DNA of 63,885 nucleotides, the filler included, from Collodictyon triciliatum (taxonomy: Eukaryota): NCBI GenBank assembly GCA_043381765.1. It is 46 parts of 46 records of this genome, joined end to end, with 100 filler letters (N's around TTAATTAATTAA, not from the genome) between each part and the next. Parts side by side here need not be neighbours in the genome. Positions count along the whole stretch, not along the records: positions 43,189 to 44,476 come from JBHJMP010011536.1; 45 more parts are not named here. One strand, given 5' to 3'. The first letter of the stretch is position 1. Each line of letters starts with the position of its first letter. The notes under the pieces are model-generated. The model worked only from the letters and a program-made list of their open reading frames with translations. It was not told where the DNA came from and ran no database searches. The position numbers were made by a program, and so were the translations under genes. Positions 1,296-44,576 of this stretch are shown here, one piece after another.

Positions 1296-1396
1296 ANNNN
1301 NNNNNNNNNNNNNNNNNNNNNNNNNNNNNNNNNNNNNNNNTTAATTAATTAANNNNNNNNNNNNNNNNNNNNNNNNNNNNNNNNNNNNNNNNNNNN
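1296..1396. other. Artificial contig-joining spacer (N-run, TTAATTAATTAA, N-run); first of 45, recurring about every 1.39 kb
   Basis: Identical 12-mer with stops in all six frames, flanked by ~44 N on each side; contig lengths fall steadily from ~1296 to ~1285 bp. Confidence 0.98.
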
Positions 1397-17890: not shown

Positions 17891-18138
17891 CTTTTTCTTT
17901 TTTCTTTTTCTTTTTTCTTTTTTCTTTTCTCTTTTTTCTTTTTCTTTTTTCTTTTTTCTTTTTCTTTTTTCTTTTTTCTTTTTTCTTTTTCTTTTTTCTT
18001 TTTTCTTTTTTCTTTTTTCTTTTTTCTTTTTTCTTTTTNNNNNNNNNNNNNNNNNNNNNNNNNNNNNNNNNNNNNNNNNNNNTTAATTAATTAANNNNNN
18101 NNNNNNNNNNNNNNNNNNNNNNNNNNNNNNNNNNNNNN

Positions 18139-19432
18139 GCGCTAGTAGCGGCTCGGGCGTGTTTGGTGGTGGTGATGGGATTCTGCTCTCACAGAGCTGT
18201 GCCTTGAAGTTCGGGCATATGCGATGGATAAGATGCCACATTCCACGCTGCCAAAATCCTTTCGGATGGGTAAGCATATCTGTCCACCATCTCATCGTGA
18301 GTGATGTCCATGCAATGCCAGGCGTTATGAGTCCCAGTCCTCCCTCCGTGGGTGGCTTAGAGAGCGTCTTGATTTTATATTTTTGATTATTCGTAGTGAT
18401 GAAGTTGCGGCAGATGTCTTCCAGCTCCTTCAGCCTTTGGGGATTCAGCAAAGTGCCTTTCATGTTGTAGATAAGGGTCGACAGCATCACTTGGTTCCAC
18501 AACCTTACTTTCCCCACGTCCGAGAGATGAAAGTTGCTCCACACTGATATTTTCGACTTGATGTCCTCAACCAGGCTTGTCCATTTGTTATCTGATTGTG
18601 GACCGAATATGATACCAAGATACTTGAGTGGATGTGATGGTGGCTTCCACACAATTTTTCCTGGAAACACAAGTCCGTCCTGAAACCCGAAAAGAATCCC
18701 ATCTGTCTTGTCGTAGTTGATTTTCCCGCCGACAGCTCGTGTGTATTCTTGCACGCATTTGTTGGCGAGTGTGGCGCCTTCGGGAGACCGCAAGATGAAT
18801 GCTATGTTGTCTGCATATTGAAGTATCAGGTTGTTGCGACTTTTTTTCGTTTCGGAAATGGTTTGTAAGGCAGTCAGCGACAAAGTAGAAGAGCAGTGGT
18901 GCAAATGGGCAGCCTTGATACATCCCGCTCTGTCTTTGAATTGCATCCGTAGGTCCGTGTGCCGTGAGTACCCTCGCTGTTGCATTGTCGTGCAATTTCT
19001 TGATAAGGCTGGTGAATACAGTACAGAAGCCTCTTTTGTGTAGGATGGTTTCCAGTGCTTCGTGGTTCACATAGTCGTATGCTTTCTCCAGGTCGTAGAA
19101 AATCATAGCGCGGGGCGTCCCGCTTACTTGATATTCCATGTACTCTTTGTTGACAAGCCAGATGTTTGTGTCGATGTTCCTTCCGTTCATGAAACCAATC
19201 TGCTCTTTGGATATGAGTTTGTCAGCGAAGGGTGATATGCGATTTCTGAGTAGCGTCGTAAATATCTTATAGTCGTTATTCAACAGTGATATTGGCCGCC
19301 AGTCTGCAAGGTTGCTCGAGTTTCCTTTCTTTGGTATCAGCCGCACCGTGGCCTCTGTAAATCCTTGCGGTAGGTCGCCACCAGACATGATTCCATTCAG
19401 AAAAGCCACTAAGGATGCCTTGACCTCATTAA
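18139..19432 (-). mobile_element. L1/Tx1-clade non-LTR retrotransposon reverse transcriptase, frameshifted
   Basis: LIPKKG..WRPISLLNNDYKIF, QIGFMNGRNI, DLEKAYD, QGCPFAPLLF, then after a frameshift near 18850 QYADN, INYDKT, KYLGI, GGLGL. Confidence 0.95.
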
Positions 19433-19624
19433 NNNNNNNNNNNNNNNNNNNNNNNNNNNNNNNNNNNNNNNNNNNNTTAATTAATTAANNNNNNNNNNNN
19501 NNNNNNNNNNNNNNNNNNNNNNNNNNNNNNNNTGGATTTTTTTATAAAAATAAAAGATAGATAGAAAGAGATGAATAGGAATGTAAGAAAAGATAAACTG
19601 GGTGGTGAAATAGAAAGATAGCAA

Positions 19625-20339: not shown

Positions 20340-20827
20340 TCTGGCATAAAGACAAAAAGGAGAATCACGACACATCAGGTACTACGAGCAAATCGACCGA
20401 TGGTTCTTCGGACTCGGCAAAGAAAAAGAAATGACGCTCTACCCTCCACCGCCAGAGTCAGACGAGAATGAACCGCTGCCACCTGAAGAGATTGGCAAAA
20501 CTAACATCCAAAACTTCTACGCCGATGTGTGGAAGAAACGAGACTTTGACCGTGCAACCCTCGAGCTGGTAACAAATAATTTCTCTATGGCGAACGAAAG
20601 GGAGGCAGAATCTATGGTCAAAGACATTGATGACAGCGAATTGTGGAGCGCTATCAAGTCCATGCTGAAGCGCAAAGCACCAGGCCCTGACCGCCTACCT
20701 AGCGAAGCGTACGCCACCTTCTTCCAAGTCATCAAGACATCCCTCCTGGGACTCCTAAACAGCCTGATTGCAGATGCAGACAACATCCCGGATGGCTTTA
20801 CAGAAGCAATGGTGCGTCTAATCCCAA
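20340..20827 (+). mobile_element. L1/Tx1 ORF2 fragment (pre-RT region)
   Basis: IQNFYADVW, ELWSAIKSMLKRKAPGPDRLPSEAY, GFTEAMVRLIP; the last motif also starts the RT at 19409. Confidence 0.9.
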
Positions 20828-21111
20828 NNNNNNNNNNNNNNNNNNNNNNNNNNNNNNNNNNNNNNNNNNNNTTAATTAATTAANNNNNNNNNNNNNNNNN
20901 NNNNNNNNNNNNNNNNNNNNNNNNNNNTTTCTGTCTCTGTCTCTGTCTCTGTCTCTGTCTCTGTCTCTGTCTCTGTCTCTGTCTCTGTCTCTGTCTCTGT
21001 CTCTGTCTCTGTTTCTGTCTCTGTCTCTGTCTCTGTCTCTGTCTCTGTCTCTGTCTCTGTCTCTGATTGCCCTTGGCACACAGCGAGTTCGCTAACAATC
21101 CTTCGCTCCAG

Positions 21112-21315: not shown

Positions 21316-22323
21316 CCTATTCCCCTATCGAAAGCAAAGGTGATGAAGAAGAAAATATTAAATGCAATTAAGCCCTGTTCGAACCGGCTGTAACGGAATG
21401 ACAGAGGATGCGTCCGTATTTGCCGCCTTTGTGTGTGAGGTCTTTTACATCATAGTTGGGTGGATATGCGGCCCATGTCCTCCTCCTTTATTCTCTTTCG
21501 TAGCGGCCATTCGTATGTGTGTTTGTGTGTGTGTATGTGTGTGTCTGTGGGAGTGCCTGTTGTTGATTTGTCAGTGTTCGTGTAGAAAAGGCTAATGATA
21601 CCACGCGAGCGCAGTCTCCAACATCATTCCCAGAGGAAAAAAAAAAAGACTAGGAGGAAAAAACAACGAAGGCTGCTCAACAGAAGAGAGCGGTCTGAAT
21701 AACATCGTTAGCAAAGACTTTGGACGATATAAGAATACACAGGAAAAGATTGTGCAGCGAGCGAAGCAGCTAAGTTTGAGATCTTTGCAGGATCGACTCG
21801 TTGGTTTTTTTCGCGATGTCGACCACAAACACTTCACAAAGCGGTCCGAAAAAGAAAGGTAAGAAACGATCCCTTTGTCCTCTGTTTCTCGCACTGCAGT
21901 CTCTTTTCCCTATCAAGGTTCGCTCCAAACAGCCTGCCATAACCCCCCGCGTAGTTGTGGTGATCTCCAAGTCTTCTCTTTGCATTTTCTGGCACATGAC
22001 TGCAAAGACACTTTATTCAGCTCTTTTAGTTCTTTTAGTTCTTTTAGTTCTTTTAGTCCTTTTAGTCCTTTTAGTTCTTTTAGTTCTTTTAGTCCTTTTA
22101 GTTCTTTTAGTTTTTTTAGTTTTTTTAGTTCTTTTAGTTCTTTTAGTTCTTTTAGTTCTTTTAGTTCTTTTAGTTCTTTTAGTTCTTTTAGTTCTTTTAG
22201 TTCTTTTAGTTCTTTTAGTTCNNNNNNNNNNNNNNNNNNNNNNNNNNNNNNNNNNNNNNNNNNNNTTAATTAATTAANNNNNNNNNNNNNNNNNNNNNNN
22301 NNNNNNNNNNNNNNNNNNNNNAC

Positions 22324-24174: not shown

Positions 24175-25685
24175 ATTTAGCGAGGGAGTTGGTTAATCCG
24201 TGGAAAATATACAATAATATTTTATTGCTCTTTTGTTTCTGTAAATATTATAGATATGTTATGTCCTTTGTTTTTTAAACTCTTATTATTAACAAGGAAA
24301 TGTTGTGTTCGTAACCTGATTAATGAATATGTCTAGAATTCCTTGGAGTTGTTCGTTCCTTTGGAAAAGGTGGGACACAATCACTTTGTCGAACTCCTCT
24401 GCAATATCGCTGGCCTGGACATAGTGTATGATGAGAAAAATGAAGAATGAAGAATGAAAAACGAAGAATAATGAAAAGAATGAAGAATAATGAAAAGAAT
24501 GAAGAATAATGAAAAGAATGAAGAATAATGAAAAAAATGAAGAATGAAGAATGAAGAATGAAGAATAATGAATAATGAATAATGAAAAGAATGAAGAAAG
24601 AAGAATGACGAATGAAAAATGACGAATGAAAAATGACGAATGAAAAAGGAAAAAAGAAAAAGGAAAAAGGAAAAAGGAAAAAGGAAAAAGGAAAAAGGAA
24701 AAATGAAAAATAGAAAAGAAAAAAGAAAAGGTAAAAGAAAAAAGATGATGAAAAACGAAAAAGGGAAAAGGGAAAAGGGAAAAGAAAAGGGGAAAAGGGA
24801 AAAGGGAAAAGAAAAGGGGAAGAAAAGGGCCTCTCTATAATGTTTTAATGACAAGCTTTAAATAATTATTGTATAATGAGGTTTTTATATCTCAGCCCAT
24901 TTTTCTTCACTTTTTCATTTCATAAATCGAGTTGTCCTTGAAAGCGAAATGAAAGCGGATCGAGCGTCATACAAAGAAGCCGTCGTCGCTGATGTACTTA
25001 GTAAAAGTNNNNNNNNNNNNNNNNNNNNNNNNNNNNNNNNNNNNNNNNNNNNTTAATTAATTAANNNNNNNNNNNNNNNNNNNNNNNNNNNNNNNNNNNN
25101 NNNNNNNNTGGCTTTGTTGGGGGATTTATGAAGCGCAAGAATTTGGGTCAGTAGATACAGATGTTAATCATGATAATTTAAAGGCTTACAGAGGGTTTGT
25201 GCCCCGTCCGCAGGTTGCTTGTGCATTGTGTTGTAGTTCATTCGTCGGTCGTCTCGGCAGGGTTGGAGTGATTGTGATAATCATCAAATCCATCCACAGA
25301 CACGCACGAGGCTCTCATCTGCCAACCGAAGACGACAGAACCTCATATATGCTTGAATCTTGGGCTGCAACATCCTTCGTAATAGAAACATGCCCCTTCT
25401 CGATTTATAAAAATTCAAAATTTTGAATTTGAAGGACATAACATCTTGATTCCATCACTTCCACAAGTGTCGAAGAAATATCGATATGGAAGGGAAAATT
25501 GATGAAAGTACAGGGTAGTAGATAAAAATATATTACAGGTTTTTTTAATCATCATGATTTTGATATCACACTCAATTCAGCATTACAAGAAAAAATACAA
25601 ATCATAATTCCTTTTTTTTCTTCGTTTCTTTCTATTTTTTTTGAATTTTTTCATACAAATATTCGATAATATTCTTTGGAAATAT

Positions 25686-27894: not shown

Positions 27895-28690
27895 AGGAGT
27901 TACAGAAACACTCCAAACAACTGCTGTGTGTCCAATCAATGTGCGAATAAAAGCTCCATCAGAAAGATTCCAGATTTTGATTGTACTATCGTAACTCCCA
28001 GATACAACTTTTGTACCATCGGGAGAGACAGCAACACTTACAACAGCATTAGAATGACCTGTTAATGTGCGAATCAAAGCCCCGTCTGAAAGATTCCATA
28101 TTTTAACAGTATGATCGTGGCTTCCAGAAATTATTTTTGTATCATCAGGAGTGGCAGCAACAGTTTCAACCCAATTTGTATGTCCAATTAATGTGTGTAT
28201 CAAAGCTCCATCAGAAAGATTCCAGACTCTTATAGAACTCATTAATCCAGTGACTATTTTTGATCCATCGGGCATGAGAACTATGCTAGTAGCTCCACTT
28301 TCTAGCCCACCGATAGTGAGAATCAAAGCTCCATCAGAAAGATTCCAGATTTTGATTGTATTATCCCAACTCCCAGATACTATTTTTAACCCATCAGGAG
28401 TGACAGTAACACATCTGACAATATTTGTATGACCAAACAATGTGCGAATCAAAGCTCCATCAGAAATGCTCCAAATTTTAATTGTGCTATCATGACTCCC
28501 AGAAACTATTTTTGAACTATCAGGGGGTACAGCAACATTATTAACCCAATCAGTATGACCAGTCAATGTGCGGATAAGATACTCCTGCCCTTGAACTTGA
28601 AAAATATGGCTGTGGGATGCTAACCCTAAAACGGGTTTTGTCAGTGTGTTTCGTATTGTAAATTTCGGCCATTTTGTGTGAATATTATTC
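27895..28690 (-). CDS. WD40-repeat protein with highly similar 42-aa repeats, single long exon
   Basis: At least 5.5 repeats of GALIRTLxGHxxxVxxVxVxPDGxKIVSGSxDxTIKIWNLSD. Confidence 0.93.
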
Positions 28691-29328: not shown

Positions 29329-29872
29329 GAGTCTTCCAAGGGTCTTGCAGCTTGTTCCTGATTGTCCAGTCGACGAAAGGTTTGTCATTGCGTGTCGAAG
29401 AACCCAGACCACTCAGTGCTGGCATCAAGAAGAGCGTTGAAGTCTCCACAGATGATGACATGTTTCGCAGACTCCATCTCCTTAGAGGGAAGCTCATACT
29501 CGTGTATTCTAGTATTTGAAACTGCTGTTTGGAGCGACATGTATGTCGTCATTATGCGAGTGTCAGCCCCATCGATTTGGATATCGAGACTTATGCAGCA
29601 CCCAGGAATCATCTCTCTGAAGCGAGGATTGATTTTGGCTATCCATTTCTTGCATAAAATCCCTACACCTGCGTGTCTGTGATGATTATCGTCACGGGAC
29701 CACATTTGTGAATCTTTCCATACTTCATTGTTTGTTAGATTGTCAGGGCTGGGCCATGTTTCTTGGAGGCAGATGATATCTGCGTGAGAGAAAAGAGCAG
29801 TGTTTAGGGCCTCTTTTCTTTTTGTGGGGTCGTTAATCCCCTAATGTTCCACGACAGAACGTTAAAATGCAT
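29325..29872 (-). mobile_element. L1/Tx1 ORF2 APE endonuclease, frameshifted
   Basis: VLSWNIRG, DIICLQETW, AGVGIL, VIICGDFNALL, LQDPWKTLNP in shifting frames; ends in (GA)n. Confidence 0.9.
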
Positions 29873-30579: not shown

Positions 30580-30680
30580 NNNNNNNNNNNNNNNNNNNNN
30601 NNNNNNNNNNNNNNNNNNNNNNNTTAATTAATTAANNNNNNNNNNNNNNNNNNNNNNNNNNNNNNNNNNNNNNNNNNNNA

Positions 30681-31184
30681 AAGGATGCTGGCTGGGAGAC
30701 TTCAAAAGCAAAGGATGCTGGCTGGGAGACATCAAAAGCAAAGGATGCTGGCTGGGAGACTTCAAAACCAAGAAATGCTGGCTGGGAAACATCAAAAGCA
30801 AAGGATGCTGGCTGGGAGACTTCAAAACCAAGAAATGCTGGCTGGGAGACATCAAAAGCAAAGGATGCTGGCTGGGAGACTTCAAAAGCAAAAGATGCCG
30901 GCTGGGAAACTTCAAAAGCAAAGGATGCTGGCTGGGAGACTTCAAGGCCAAGAAATGCTGGCTGGGAAACTTCAAAACCAAAGGATGCTGGCTGGGAGAC
31001 ATCAAAAGCAAAGGATGCTGGCTGGGAGACTTCAAAAGCAAAGGATGCTGGCTGGGAAACTTCAAAAGCAAAGGATGCTGGCTGGGAGACATCAAAAGCA
31101 AAGGATGCTGGCTGGGAGACTTCGAAACCAAAGGATGCTGGCTGGGAGACATCAAAACCAAGAGATGCTGGCTGGGGTGCATAA
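30681..31184 (+). CDS. C-terminus of a GW-repeat protein, 17 x (K/R)(D/N)AGWETSK(A/P), ending RDAGWGA-stop
   Basis: 30-bp tandem repeat; in this frame ACT/ACA, GAG/GAA, GCT/GCC, AAG/AAA and TCA/TCG variants are synonymous and TAA (31182-31184) follows the last unit. Confidence 0.8.
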   Translation, partial: KDAGWETSKAKDAGWETSKAKDAGWETSKPRNAGWETSKAKDAGWETSKPRNAGWETSKAKDAGWETSKAKDAGWETSKAKDAGWETSRPRNAGWETSKPKDAGWETSKAKDAGWETSKAKDAGWETSKAKDAGWETSKAKDAGWETSKPKDAGWETSKPRDAGWGA

Positions 31185-31667
31185 ATCTATTGAGATTATG
31201 AACACAGAATATACCAAAATGGGCACGGTATGCAGAGGTGGCAACCAAATCGACATGATTTGGGGGGATTTCAAACATATAATTCCAATCGAGGCAACGA
31301 CACACCCAAATAAAGTGTGCCATGATCAGCAAATGTGGAAAATAGATAAACCGCTATTTTCAGTCATTCATATATCTTTTTGAACATATCTACATATAAT
31401 TTTTGATTTTAGAGTTGTATATCAAACCATAAAGTCGCCCTAAACTGACACCTATGCGGTGGCATCAATCCAACCAAAAGCAGAAGCAAACACAAACCAA
31501 GCATAAGAATAAGCATCACAAAAGACCAAAAACCCTTTCTGACCGATTCTTTTGAGCTTGTTGCGCGGCTTCATCGATCGCATCTGCCCATTTTTGTCCA
31601 CGCCAGCCTCACAGACGAGCTGCACTCAACTCAACTCAACTCAACTTAACAACGAGAGTTCCTTGCC

Positions 31668-40282: not shown

Positions 40283-41023
40283 ATTTGTAGGGTTCCTTTT
40301 TTTTTTTTTTNNNNNNNNNNNNNNNNNNNNNNNNNNNNNNNNNNNNNNNNNNNNTTAATTAATTAANNNNNNNNNNNNNNNNNNNNNNNNNNNNNNNNNN
40401 NNNNNNNNNNGCCGCAACATTCCTGTTTATTTGTTTGACTCACAAGAACACAATACAGATTATCGACATCCTTGGCGACATTAAATCTCGACTGCCTCCC
40501 GCACCCTTATCTTAAACGCATTTCAAACGCGTTATAAACCCAAATAAGAAAATTATAGAATCGTTTTATTCATATCATTGACTAATTTTGGATTCCAATT
40601 ATGGAAAATATCTCTTCGTCTGCTTCAAGTGTTTTTCCTTCCGGCTTTTAGAAAAAGAACAGAGAAAGAAAGTTACTGTTGGCCTGTGCAGATCGCGCGT
40701 CCATCAGTCTCGGGGACTTTTCTTTTGTTCAGCGCGGTCTGGTTCGCGCGTGCCGGAGACTTTGATTGCCAGAAAGAATCAGCTGAAGAAACCATTCTTT
40801 TCTTTNNNNNNNNNNNNNNNNNNNNNNNNNNNNNNNNNNNNNNNNNNNNNNNNNNNNNNNNNNNNNNNNNNNNNNNNNNNNNNNNNNNNNNNNNNNNNNN
40901 NNNNNNNNNNNCATGATAACATCCATAATTTTGATTTTTGTAATGCTATATAATCGGATTTTTCTTATGAATTCAACCATTTTAAATCGTATGCATTCAT
41001 TTTAAATTATATATAAAAATCAG

Positions 41024-43088: not shown

Positions 43089-43188
43089 NNNNNNNNNNNN
43101 NNNNNNNNNNNNNNNNNNNNNNNNNNNNNNNNTTAATTAATTAANNNNNNNNNNNNNNNNNNNNNNNNNNNNNNNNNNNNNNNNNNNN

Positions 43189-44198
43189 TTTAGCTTCTTC
43201 AGCTCTTTTAGCTTCTTCAGCTCTTTTAGCTTCTTCAGCTCTTTTAGCTTCTTCAGCTCTTTTAGCTTCTTCAGCTCTTTTAGCTTCTTCAGCTTTTTTA
43301 GCTTCTTCAGCTCTTTTAGCTTCTTCAGCTGCGGTGTCGACCTAGGGTTATGTTAGTTGTGTGCTGTGTTGTGTATGTGGGGGTTGGGGGTGGATGTGTG
43401 CTTACGGGGTCGTAGAGCTGCAGAGCGCGGATGTGTTTATTGACTGAGTATTCTGTGTTAGTCCAACAGGGGAGATTTGAGATGCCACGCGGGGCTCTCT
43501 TTATGTTTACTTTTCCACTCCCATCTACCATGTCAAGTTTCTTCAGATTTGTGAGCGCTGTGATTTGTGCTGGAAGCTCCTCCATCTGTGTGTATCGTTG
43601 TCAGTCATTATCTTTTAAACATAAATAATAATATAATATATGAATAAAAACATACCGGATTGTTGAATACATAAAGTTCTGTGAGACCAGTCAAACACGA
43701 TATTTGTGCAGGTAGTGATGACAGCTGATTGACACTAACACCCAATACTTTCAGACGAGTCAAACACGATATTTGTGCAGGTAATGATGACAGCTGATTG
43801 TCATTAACATAAAGTTCTATGAGACCAGTCAAACACGATATTTGTGCAGGTAGTGATGACAGCTGATTGCCAGCAACAGAAAGATATGTGAGACCAGTCA
43901 AACACGATATTTGTGCAGGTAGCGATGACAGCTTATTGTTATAAACACCAAGTATACTGAGACCAGTCAAACACGATATTTGTGCAGGTAGTGATGACAG
44001 CTTATTGTTCCAAAGACGCAATTCTTTCAGACCAGTCAACAAAAAAACACCAGGCGGCACAGATGACAGATTCTTGTCATAGAGACTCAGATATGTGGAG
44101 CTTTTCAGAGTGGCAATATTAGCAATTGACCAATTAGAGAGTATCAGGACTTCTACCATAAGCGCATCCACTTGGGCAGGTGTGAGACAGTCGGACAT
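43189..44198 (-). CDS. Variable LRR protein A: cap, six 23-aa LRR modules, terminal LRR/cap exon, (AEEAKR)n stalk
   Basis: Exons 44198-43656, 43585-43406, 43341-43189; constant LSSLPAQISCLTGL with variable xxLxVxxN. Confidence 0.92.
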
Positions 44199-44576
44199 CT
44201 GGACAGATTCCGACTGTATATATGGGTAGACTGGCTGGGTGTCAATAAAATACACATCATTTATTTGTTTTATGAGTGAACTTAACAATCACACAGGACA
44301 GAACTACTCGAGTCAGGACGGTAGAGTTGTGCACTTGGAGATCAGAAAGTACTTTGAATAAGAAAAAAAAGTAAGGATTTCGACAAGACGAGGTTAAATA
44401 TCCCGCAAAGGCCGGCGGATTTTTCCGAGAAGACGACTTGTGCAGAACTTGTGTGCTTGTGCTTCCTTGGAAATTTNNNNNNNNNNNNNNNNNNNNNNNN
44501 NNNNNNNNNNNNNNNNNNNNTTAATTAATTAANNNNNNNNNNNNNNNNNNNNNNNNNNNNNNNNNNNNNNNNNNNN

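Follow-up and report, generated by a model that had tools for sequence, protein, structure and literature searches.

How can two genes share nearly all of their non-coding DNA and most of each coding repeat, and differ mainly at the residues that would face a ligand? This question is raised by two leucine-rich repeat (LRR) genes, here called A and B, in a 63,885-nucleotide (nt) stretch of the genome of Collodictyon triciliatum (assembly GCA_043381765.1), referred to below as the window. Both genes have an intact three-exon plan: an N-terminal cap (N-cap) is followed by 23-residue LRR modules, an LRR-like C-terminal cap (C-cap) exon and an (AEEAKR)n repeat. A first-pass annotation, made from the sequence alone, had described modules with a constant part and a variable part, and had proposed a rapidly diversifying recognition repertoire. 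We consider it moderately likely that A and B are members of a germline, multi-copy, expressed intracellular LRR family that evolves in a mode of high internal conservation and likely serves as a recognition or sensor repertoire.

Constant scaffolds and hypervariable cassettes

Each canonical module spans 69 nt and consists of a 42-nt constant block (the scaffold) and a 27-nt cassette. The six canonical modules of A and B were compared by column counts and by the non-synonymous (dN) and synonymous (dS) divergence between modules. Variable columns made up 4 of 42 in the scaffold and 19 of 27 in the cassette, which bears out the near-invariant scaffold and the hypervariable cassettes, at exposed positions, of the first-pass annotation; the cassette peptides it gave for both genes were likewise recovered by a register cut of exon 1. 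In pairwise comparisons, constant blocks were identical at 38-42 of 42 positions and cassettes at 14-20 of 27, with 7-16 of the 27 cassette nt differing between any two modules. Pairwise divergence was low in the scaffold (dN = 0.011, dS = 0.084) compared with the cassette (dN = 0.60, dS = 0.40). Since dS was thus five-fold lower in the scaffold, this part of the module is homogenized at the DNA level and not merely conserved as protein.

The variable codons encode x2, x3, x5, x7, x8, and x10 of LxxLxLxxNxL, while the L, V/L, and N positions are fixed. LRR structures have the x positions of LxxLxLxxN on their concave beta-sheet. A single-sequence AlphaFold2 model (P0001; mean pLDDT 59.5, i.e. 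of low confidence) placed strands at residues 59-63, 82-86, 105-109, 128-131, 151-155, and 174-178, which correspond to the cassettes. The changes had been thought to concentrate at codon positions 1 and 2, a claim that we could not uphold: variable columns were distributed 8/7/8 over positions 1/2/3, not above a uniform spread, and 6/7/6 (of nine each) within the cassette. Third positions varied at 6 of 9 sites in the cassette vs 2 of 14 in the scaffold, and the third-position excess expected under purifying selection was absent. In addition, half-cassettes (TYLSV.. and SILGV../SILD) recur with other second halves, and TYLSV is internal in A and terminal elsewhere, as is likewise the case for SILGV/SILD. 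These new combinations and positions indicate that the cassettes are mosaic. The first module of each gene (module 0) has a scaffold of its own, distinct from that of the canonical modules; between A and B, 41 of its 42 scaffold nt and 18 of its 27 cassette nt are identical.

Comparison of the two genes outside the modules gave a similar picture. The common upstream region of about 280 bp, the shared intron positions and the similar intron 1 noted at first pass were all confirmed, with 252 of 281 aligned upstream columns identical (90%) and 6 of 70 nt differing in intron 1 (91% identity); intron 2 was 95% identical. Values for the N-cap with module 0 (87%) and for exon 2 (84%) were lower, so that non-coding DNA (90-95%) was more conserved than the exons (84-87%). 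Moreover, dN between A and B (~0.16) was higher than the divergence of the non-coding DNA (0.07-0.10; Fisher p = 0.009). Over 869 aligned columns, the two genes differ at 108, and these differences are strongly clustered: neither their variance nor their maximum was matched in any of 5000 permutations. The differences include the patches in both caps that had been reported as divergent between A and B. Patches replaced wholesale within a homogenized frame are more easily explained by an exchange between diverged copies, or by strong local selection, than by uniform drift.

The assignment to the LRR family proposed at first pass was supported by Pfam (LRR_8, E = 2.3e-27; LRR_4, E = 1.5e-18). 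With their 23 residues and 69-nt period, the modules fall into the SHOC2/RSU1/ROCO-type class. The closest solved sequences to exon 1 were SHOC2 (E = 8e-61) and LRRD1 (E = 1.7e-60), and a profile of nine exon-2 peptides matched the LRRs of RSU1 (E = 2.5e-11). Such neighbours, together with introns and upstream DNA alike enough for a recent duplication and with a dN/dS not significantly different from 1, would also suit an ordinary SHOC2/RSU1-like adaptor or scaffold family, in which tandem or segmental duplicates arose recently and the cassettes drift under relaxed constraint. We think this unlikely. Neutral drift predicts an even spread of changes, against the observed excess of variable columns and of variable third positions in the cassettes and the clustering of the A-B differences. 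The divergence between cassettes is several times that of the introns (0.07), and the variable sites are exactly the ligand-face positions.

A further explanation concerns the assembly. As read on the contigs, A has six modules and B has two, as counted at first pass; the step from these counts to a variable module number was not supported, being drawn from two short-read contigs with internal exact repeats of up to 50 nt. Both contigs may derive from a collapsed short-read graph that was traversed by chimeric or short-cut paths, in which case the family would be real, and the six-versus-two difference and the order of the cassettes would not. This is rather improbable in our estimate, though a possibility to be taken seriously. 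The contigs are ~1.29 kb long and belong to a very fragmented assembly with contigs ending in repeats, the contigs of the family in Logan are fragments of ~100 nt, and exact repeats are as long as 50 nt within A and 54 nt between A and B. The repeat arrays of Podospora NLRs were recovered from long reads and not from Illumina assemblies, and the available part of that study describes short-read assemblies of highly conserved repeat domains as unreliable (PMC12222747). With exact repeats of 50 nt in A, this warning bears directly on the claim of six versus two modules. Against an artefact, the open frame, the intron phases and the regular xxLxVxxN pattern are intact through every junction on both contigs. 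Each cassette of A is unique, so that the array could be resolved with reads or k-mers of more than 50 nt, and the hypervariable/constant pattern is in any case independent of module order.

Family members, probable transcripts, and capped relatives

Apart from A and B, no further copy of the family was found within the window. Additional members came from public sequencing runs. The run search listed 23 runs, 20 of which contained part of the queried stretch, none of them half of its sampled words; four (X1-X4) were compared in detail, and the small shares in X5-X20 have no bearing on habitat or expression. At 88-100% identity to the 1288-nt contig of gene A, 211 contigs were obtained from X1 (labelled organism A, guessed to be RNA; 55 of them at 99% or more) and 161 from X3 (labelled organism B, also guessed to be RNA; 36 at 99% or more). 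Two freshwater metagenomes, X2 and X4, contributed 26 contigs (7 at 99% or more) and 28 contigs (1 at 99% or more), respectively. Summed run depths do not equal copy numbers.

One X1 contig joins position 43585 to 43656, removing exactly the 70 nt of intron 1 (ends CT..AC on the plus strand). At six joints, 10-25 other letters stood between exon 2 and the constant block, and these decode in frame as ...xxLxVxxN(P/L)|MEEL. The corresponding terminal cassettes are (i) TYLSVESNP, (ii) TRLDVDVNP, (iii) SILGVHVNP, (iv) SILGVCANP, (v) TRLDIFLNP, and (vi) SSLYVFDNL, all unlike those of A and B; a seventh, TYLSVYVNP, is followed by an unspliced intron. Letters differing within the LRR array lay in cassettes in 15 of 18 rows (among the 40 of 128 rows seen). 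Skips of 231-358 nt in run contigs were considered as members with fewer modules and rejected: contigs of ~100-170 nt can be placed on any repeated constant block, so the length of a skip is uninformative on module number. We also noted one X1 contig that leaves the gene at 43664 into 23 A on the plus strand, i.e. a T run on the gene strand.

With at least seven further terminal cassettes and seven diverged exon-2 open reading frames (ORFs) on NCBI contigs, the number of copies, counted over all these sources, is above the two or three that had been set beforehand as a test of the first-pass proposal. The family is multi-copy, and it is very probably transcribed.

Part of this diversity might be allelic. 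In that case most variants would be alleles or orthologues from a mixed population or related species, and there would be one or a few polymorphic loci of an allorecognition or mating-type kind. The sources of the extra variants are indeed freshwater metagenomes and runs that carry the labels of two other organisms, only two copies lie in the window, and allorecognition loci with a matching pattern are described in the available part of a study on Podospora (PMC1805685). We nevertheless rate this explanation as quite improbable. A and B occur in one assembly; no cassette is common to both and A has four modules more, yet their non-coding DNA is 90-95% identical. Run X1 by itself yields at least five different terminal cassettes, and the NCBI contigs hold seven exon-2 clusters with less than 50% identity.

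The C-cap connects A and B to a set of proteins from a related flagellate. Exon 2 had no Pfam match, but a phmmer search of exon 2 against 1.84 billion representative proteins gave 71 matches. In 28 of these, as in A and B, the last regular LRR is followed by the C-cap motif ..ELPxxITxLxxL..I/VxRAPxGI(S/T)xLPCW..; the other 43 were generic LRR proteins. Of the cap-bearing proteins, seven are the exon-2-like ORFs on NCBI contigs and the other 21 are EukProt transcripts from Diphylleia rotans, a flagellate that lives in fresh water and belongs to the Diphyllatea (CRuMs). All named cap-bearing relatives come from D. rotans, which makes a protist origin likely and points to a Diphylleia-like protist as the most likely source. 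The seven ORFs (68-121 residues, on contigs of 523-734 bp) are 45-67% identical to A, vary in the same two patches, and read through into the matching intron position. In D. rotans, the capped LRR unit stands at the N-terminus, before effector domains: (i) Roc-COR with DUF4062 or AAA_16 (P0126, P0134); (ii) Roc alone (P0147); (iii) a protein kinase (P0157, P0144, P0145); and (iv) a RING finger (P0146). The N-cap appears to be shared as well. An hhalign comparison of the first 66 residues of A and B with the N-termini of ten D. rotans cap proteins gave a probability of 97.2% (E = 3.7e-11, 52 columns), a score that comes partly from the first LRR in the aligned columns, and phmmer with the 43-residue N-cap alone found no match among the fetched proteins. 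For the cap exon, the ESM Atlas returned LRR fragments of plant NLRs below the recognition threshold, i.e. an LRR-like character only, and a structure model of the D. rotans mini-protein P0187, aimed at the cap fold, was useless (pLDDT 35).

The first-pass annotation had seen no evident signal peptide and had suggested a cytosolic protein, and the present data agree. The N-termini of A and B (MSDCLTPAQVDAL...) lack a hydrophobic leader, and residues 14-24 of B are charged. Together with the Roc-COR, kinase, and RING domains of the D. rotans relatives, this suggests that the protein is probably cytosolic. The domain seen in A and B is most likely the N-terminal sensor part of such a protein, with the effector part lying beyond the contig ends. 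A surface or secreted variant-antigen family, similar to the LRR surface proteins of parasites, would share the large variable repertoire and the LRR domain followed by a repetitive stalk, and a tail anchor is possible because the C-terminus lies beyond the contigs. This explanation seems very improbable to us given the absence of a signal-peptide-like segment and of Cys-rich extracellular caps (each cap has a single Cys), the cytosolic SHOC2/RSU1/ROCO type of the LRRs, and the cytosolic domains of the cap-sharing relatives.

Several points weigh against a germline recognition family. That the unit acts as the sensor of a signalling protein is extrapolated from relatives in D. rotans, with which A and B have only the caps in common, at 40-49% identity. 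The DNA of two members only was studied, and with eight modules from two genes the selection tests have low power. The codon-level dN/dS test named at first pass gave no value significantly above 1: dN/dS was 1.5 for the cassettes, 1.58 for the N-cap, and 0.46 for exon 2, with a combined value of 0.78 that was not significant (p = 0.40). The exact repeat of 50 nt inside A counts on the same side, since module order and number may be products of the assembly. Some variants from runs labelled as other organisms and from metagenomes may be alleles or orthologues, and with the RNA nature of X1 and X3 being a guess, intron-less forms could be DNA retrocopies. Furthermore, 241 million JGI metagenome records yielded no member of the family (an exact scan for the constant block gave 0 matches; a degenerate exon-2 pattern gave 49, of which 0 were confirmed). 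A word-indexed protein collection (99-2000 residues; queries P0001 and P0003) gave either no match or generic LRR proteins whose identity did not exceed 57%, a result that has no bearing on family size.

We still favour a germline recognition family, which might work as follows. The protein would start with a lineage-specific capped unit, in which 23-residue SHOC2/RSU1-type LRRs, variable in number, lie between the N-cap and an irregular LRR C-cap with RAPxGIxxLPCW. A charged Ala/Glu/Lys/Arg repeat, probably a helical spacer, would follow the C-cap and lead into the part beyond the contigs. Recombination through the identical 42-50-nt blocks, by gene conversion or unequal crossover, would keep scaffold, introns, and upstream DNA alike and would also reshuffle modules, while diversity would be maintained at the residues of the concave beta-face and, in each cap, at two patches. 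This would probably yield a germline set of binding specificities coupled to an effector domain. Gene conversion or unequal crossover had already been put forward at first pass; homogenization of the constant block is supported indirectly, by the low scaffold dS and the mosaic cassettes, and the mechanism itself keeps the status of a proposal.

Gene models and make-up of the window

The window is made up of 46 segments, each 1285-1296 nt long and arranged from longest to shortest, which are joined by 45 identical 100-nt linkers (N44-TTAATTAATTAA-N44). Genes A and B lie on separate unplaced short contigs (43189-44476 and 57059-58344) and are not neighbours, and any claim based on neighbourhood across linkers is void. 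The gene models are summarized in Table 1. All introns of gene A are in phase 0, and those of gene B have identical lengths and phases. Tandem Repeats Finder (TRF) reported a 69-nt period for A (5.2 copies, 83% matches). The core of the constant block (24 nt) was matched six times in the window, five times in A and once in B, with 0.00 matches expected by chance. The stalk repeat following the caps, as described at first pass, was recovered as an 18-nt unit with 7.9 copies and 98% matches.

Table 1. Positions of genes A and B, their parts, and the artificial linkers in the window
Feature	Position	Strand	Basis or remark
Artificial 100-nt linkers, N44-TTAATTAATTAA-N44	43089..43188, 44477-44576, 56959-57058, 58345-58444; also e.g. 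1297-1396		read in sequence
Gene A upstream region (putative promoter and 5′ untranslated region)	44199..44476	-	90% identical to B 57082-57360
Gene A exon 1, whole, 181 codons	44198-43656	-	translation
Gene A N-cap, codons 1-43	44070..44198	-	translation; two patches variable vs B
Gene A LRR module 0, scaffold LSSVPPGVFLLTGL, cassette KELRLWNNK	44001..44069	-	register cut of exon 1
Gene A five canonical 69-nt LRR modules (42-nt constant block + 27-nt cassette)	43656..44000	-	register, TRF
Module A1	44000-43932	-	
Module A2	43931-43863	-	
Module A3	43862-43794	-	
Module A4	43793-43725	-	
Module A5	43724-43656	-	
Gene A intron 1, 70 nt, GT..AG, phase 0	43586..43655	-	exactly skipped by one X1 contig
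Gene A exon 2, 60 codons, last irregular LRRs = C-cap (ELPAQITAL...IKRAPRGISNLPCW...LQLYD)	43406..43585	-	
Gene A intron 2, 64 nt, GT..AG	43342..43405	-	61/64 identical to B intron 2
Gene A exon 3, (AEEAKR)n charged repeat, truncated by contig end	43189..43341	-	
Gene B upstream region	57059..57360	+	
Gene B exon 1: N-cap, module 0 (57490-57558), one canonical module (57559-57627)	57361..57627	+	
Gene B intron 1, 70 nt	57628..57697	+	64/70 identical to A intron 1
Gene B exon 2, C-cap, 59 codons	57698..57874	+	
Gene B intron 2, 64 nt	57875..57938	+	
Gene B exon 3, degenerate AE(E)AK/R repeat ending KQKLLLERQ, then GTAAAT donor	57939..58070	+	
Gene B intron 3	58071..58344	+	sequence only

Contig A terminates within the stalk repeat, and both contigs stop in or just past the stalk exon. 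At the other end of contig A, contigs from X1, X2, and X3 extend past 44475 with the letters that open the contig of B. The end of B exon 3 and its donor recur as a loose end in X1 and X3, so other members share this exon end. Judged from splice signals in the DNA, a short exon 4 of B may lie near 58248-58344 on the plus strand, between an acceptor ...CTACACAG and a donor GTAAGC. The context of this candidate acceptor is like that of intron 1 (...AACGATAACTACACAG), and the exon would encode a basic Ser/Arg-rich stretch. On another contig, 22013-22142 is 70-75% identical to the stalk repeat of A over 116-131 nt; this is a low-complexity region of CTT/GTT type, and the likeness is probably a chance similarity between simple repeats.

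Elsewhere in the window, the segment 40411-41700 contains an additional internal gap of 106 N (40806-40911). Microsatellites or short tandem repeats stand at the ends of, or fill, many contigs, e.g. (ATT)n at 56900-56958 and repeats at 1750-2740, 24289-24857, and 30628-31383; they are probably the reason why the assembly breaks at contig ends. Stop-to-stop ORFs across these tandem repeats are not genes. Long frames at 18083-19484 (minus), 20350-20883 (plus), and 29385-29840 (minus) resemble, by eye, the reverse transcriptase/apurinic endonuclease of non-long terminal repeat retrotransposons. Finally, an open frame at 27895-28689 (minus) runs into a contig end and comprises at least five WD40 repeats of 41-42 residues, four of which are 64-69% identical in protein and 71-79% in DNA, with a conserved IKIWNLSDGALIRTL core alternating with variable positions after GH(T/S). 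The frame may encode another repeat sensor of this genome, again with repeats that are internally conserved.

Known systems and biological meaning

In evolutionary mode, the closest analogue of A and B is found among fungal NLRs, in their repeat domains of high internal conservation. The WD40 repeats of het-d, het-e, and NWD genes in Podospora undergo concerted evolution within and between loci, vary in number, and have four positively selected surface positions, as set out in the available part of the source (PMC1805685). To the extent that these systems are described there, fungal NLR sensors resemble A and B in repeats that are near-identical in nucleotides, in few hypervariable surface positions, in a repeat number that varies (in A and B as read on the contigs), and in an intracellular location, which is probable for A and B. 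They differ in several respects, beginning with the lineage, fungal on one side and a Diphylleia-like protist on the other. Fungal sensors use WD40, ANK, or TPR repeats at the C-terminus, A and B use LRRs at the N-terminus; the former carry NACHT or NB-ARC domains, whereas A and B are known only up to the stalk; and positive selection acts on the hypervariable sites of the former, whereas dN/dS in A and B is not significantly above 1.

The nearest LRR-based parallel is the LRR-ROCO family of Ectocarpus. Here, each LRR is encoded by its own exon, exons are shuffled, and diversifying selection has been proposed (PMC3341825, available part). These genes form, as far as that part describes them, a cytosolic LRR family of a protist lineage in which LRR number and sequence vary. 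A and B probably share the location and, as read on the contigs, the variation; a shuffling of repeat units is proposed for both, and the D. rotans cap relatives also include LRR-Roc-COR proteins. In contrast to the Ectocarpus arrangement given in the same part, all six or two modules of A and B lie in a single uninterrupted exon, and the 42-nt block is invariant in nucleotides. Moreover, no Roc-COR domain was seen on the A and B contigs, which end at the stalk.

The D. rotans proteins themselves (EukProt EP00002, e.g. P0126, P0134, P0147, P0157, P0144, and P0146) share with A and B an N-cap, SHOC2-type LRRs, and a C-cap at the extreme N-terminus. They differ by the moderate identity of the caps given above, the lack of an AEEAKR stalk, the presence of effector domains, and LRRs that are variable at all positions, with no invariant block discernible by eye. 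SHOC2, RSU1, and LRRD1 have the same 23-residue class of repeat (LxxLxLxxNxLxxLPxxIxxLxx); they are conserved single-copy adaptors with diverged repeats, and have no hypervariable cassettes, RAPxGIxxLPCW cap, or AEEAKR stalk.

Lamprey VLRs have a signal peptide, Cys-rich LRRNT/LRRCT caps, 24-residue modules, and a Thr/Pro-rich, glycosylphosphatidylinositol-anchored stalk, and an incomplete germline gene is completed somatically from flanking cassettes. The likeness to VLRs drawn at first pass stands as an analogy of layout: both have a cap, variable LRR modules, a second cap, and a stalk, with variability on the concave face and with a number of modules that varies, in A and B as read on the contigs. 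It does not extend to the signal peptide and the Cys-rich caps, which A and B lack, nor to the 23-residue modules and the charged AEEAKR stalk. The open frame of A and B is complete through exon 3 in the assembly, and we saw no evidence of somatic assembly. The mosaic cassettes and the many terminal cassettes in a single run would be compatible with programmed diversification in a single-celled eukaryote. Many donor copies and the expressed genes would then trade cassettes via the invariant 42-nt block, either somatically or at a high rate while clones grow. We hold this to be a long shot. If it were true, cells would differ in their LRR repertoires, and VLR-like anticipatory recognition would exist outside animals. 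Such recognition has reportedly been hypothesized once for brown algae.

Among the matches listed in full-text literature searches, no paper links leucine-rich repeats to Diphylleia, Collodictyon, or Diphyllatea. The mode of evolution has been described before; what is new is its LRR implementation with this cap in this lineage. A practical lesson is that repeat arrays like those of A and B are not to be trusted from short-read contigs. In a wider context, an invariant scaffold with hypervariable contacts is a recurring solution for non-self recognition, found in plant and fungal NLRs, lamprey VLRs, and brown-algal ROCOs. A version built from LRRs with a lineage-specific cap would extend this mode to the CRuMs, a deep and little-studied branch of the eukaryotes, and would offer a concrete candidate for how a phagotrophic flagellate tells apart prey, parasites, viruses, or kin.

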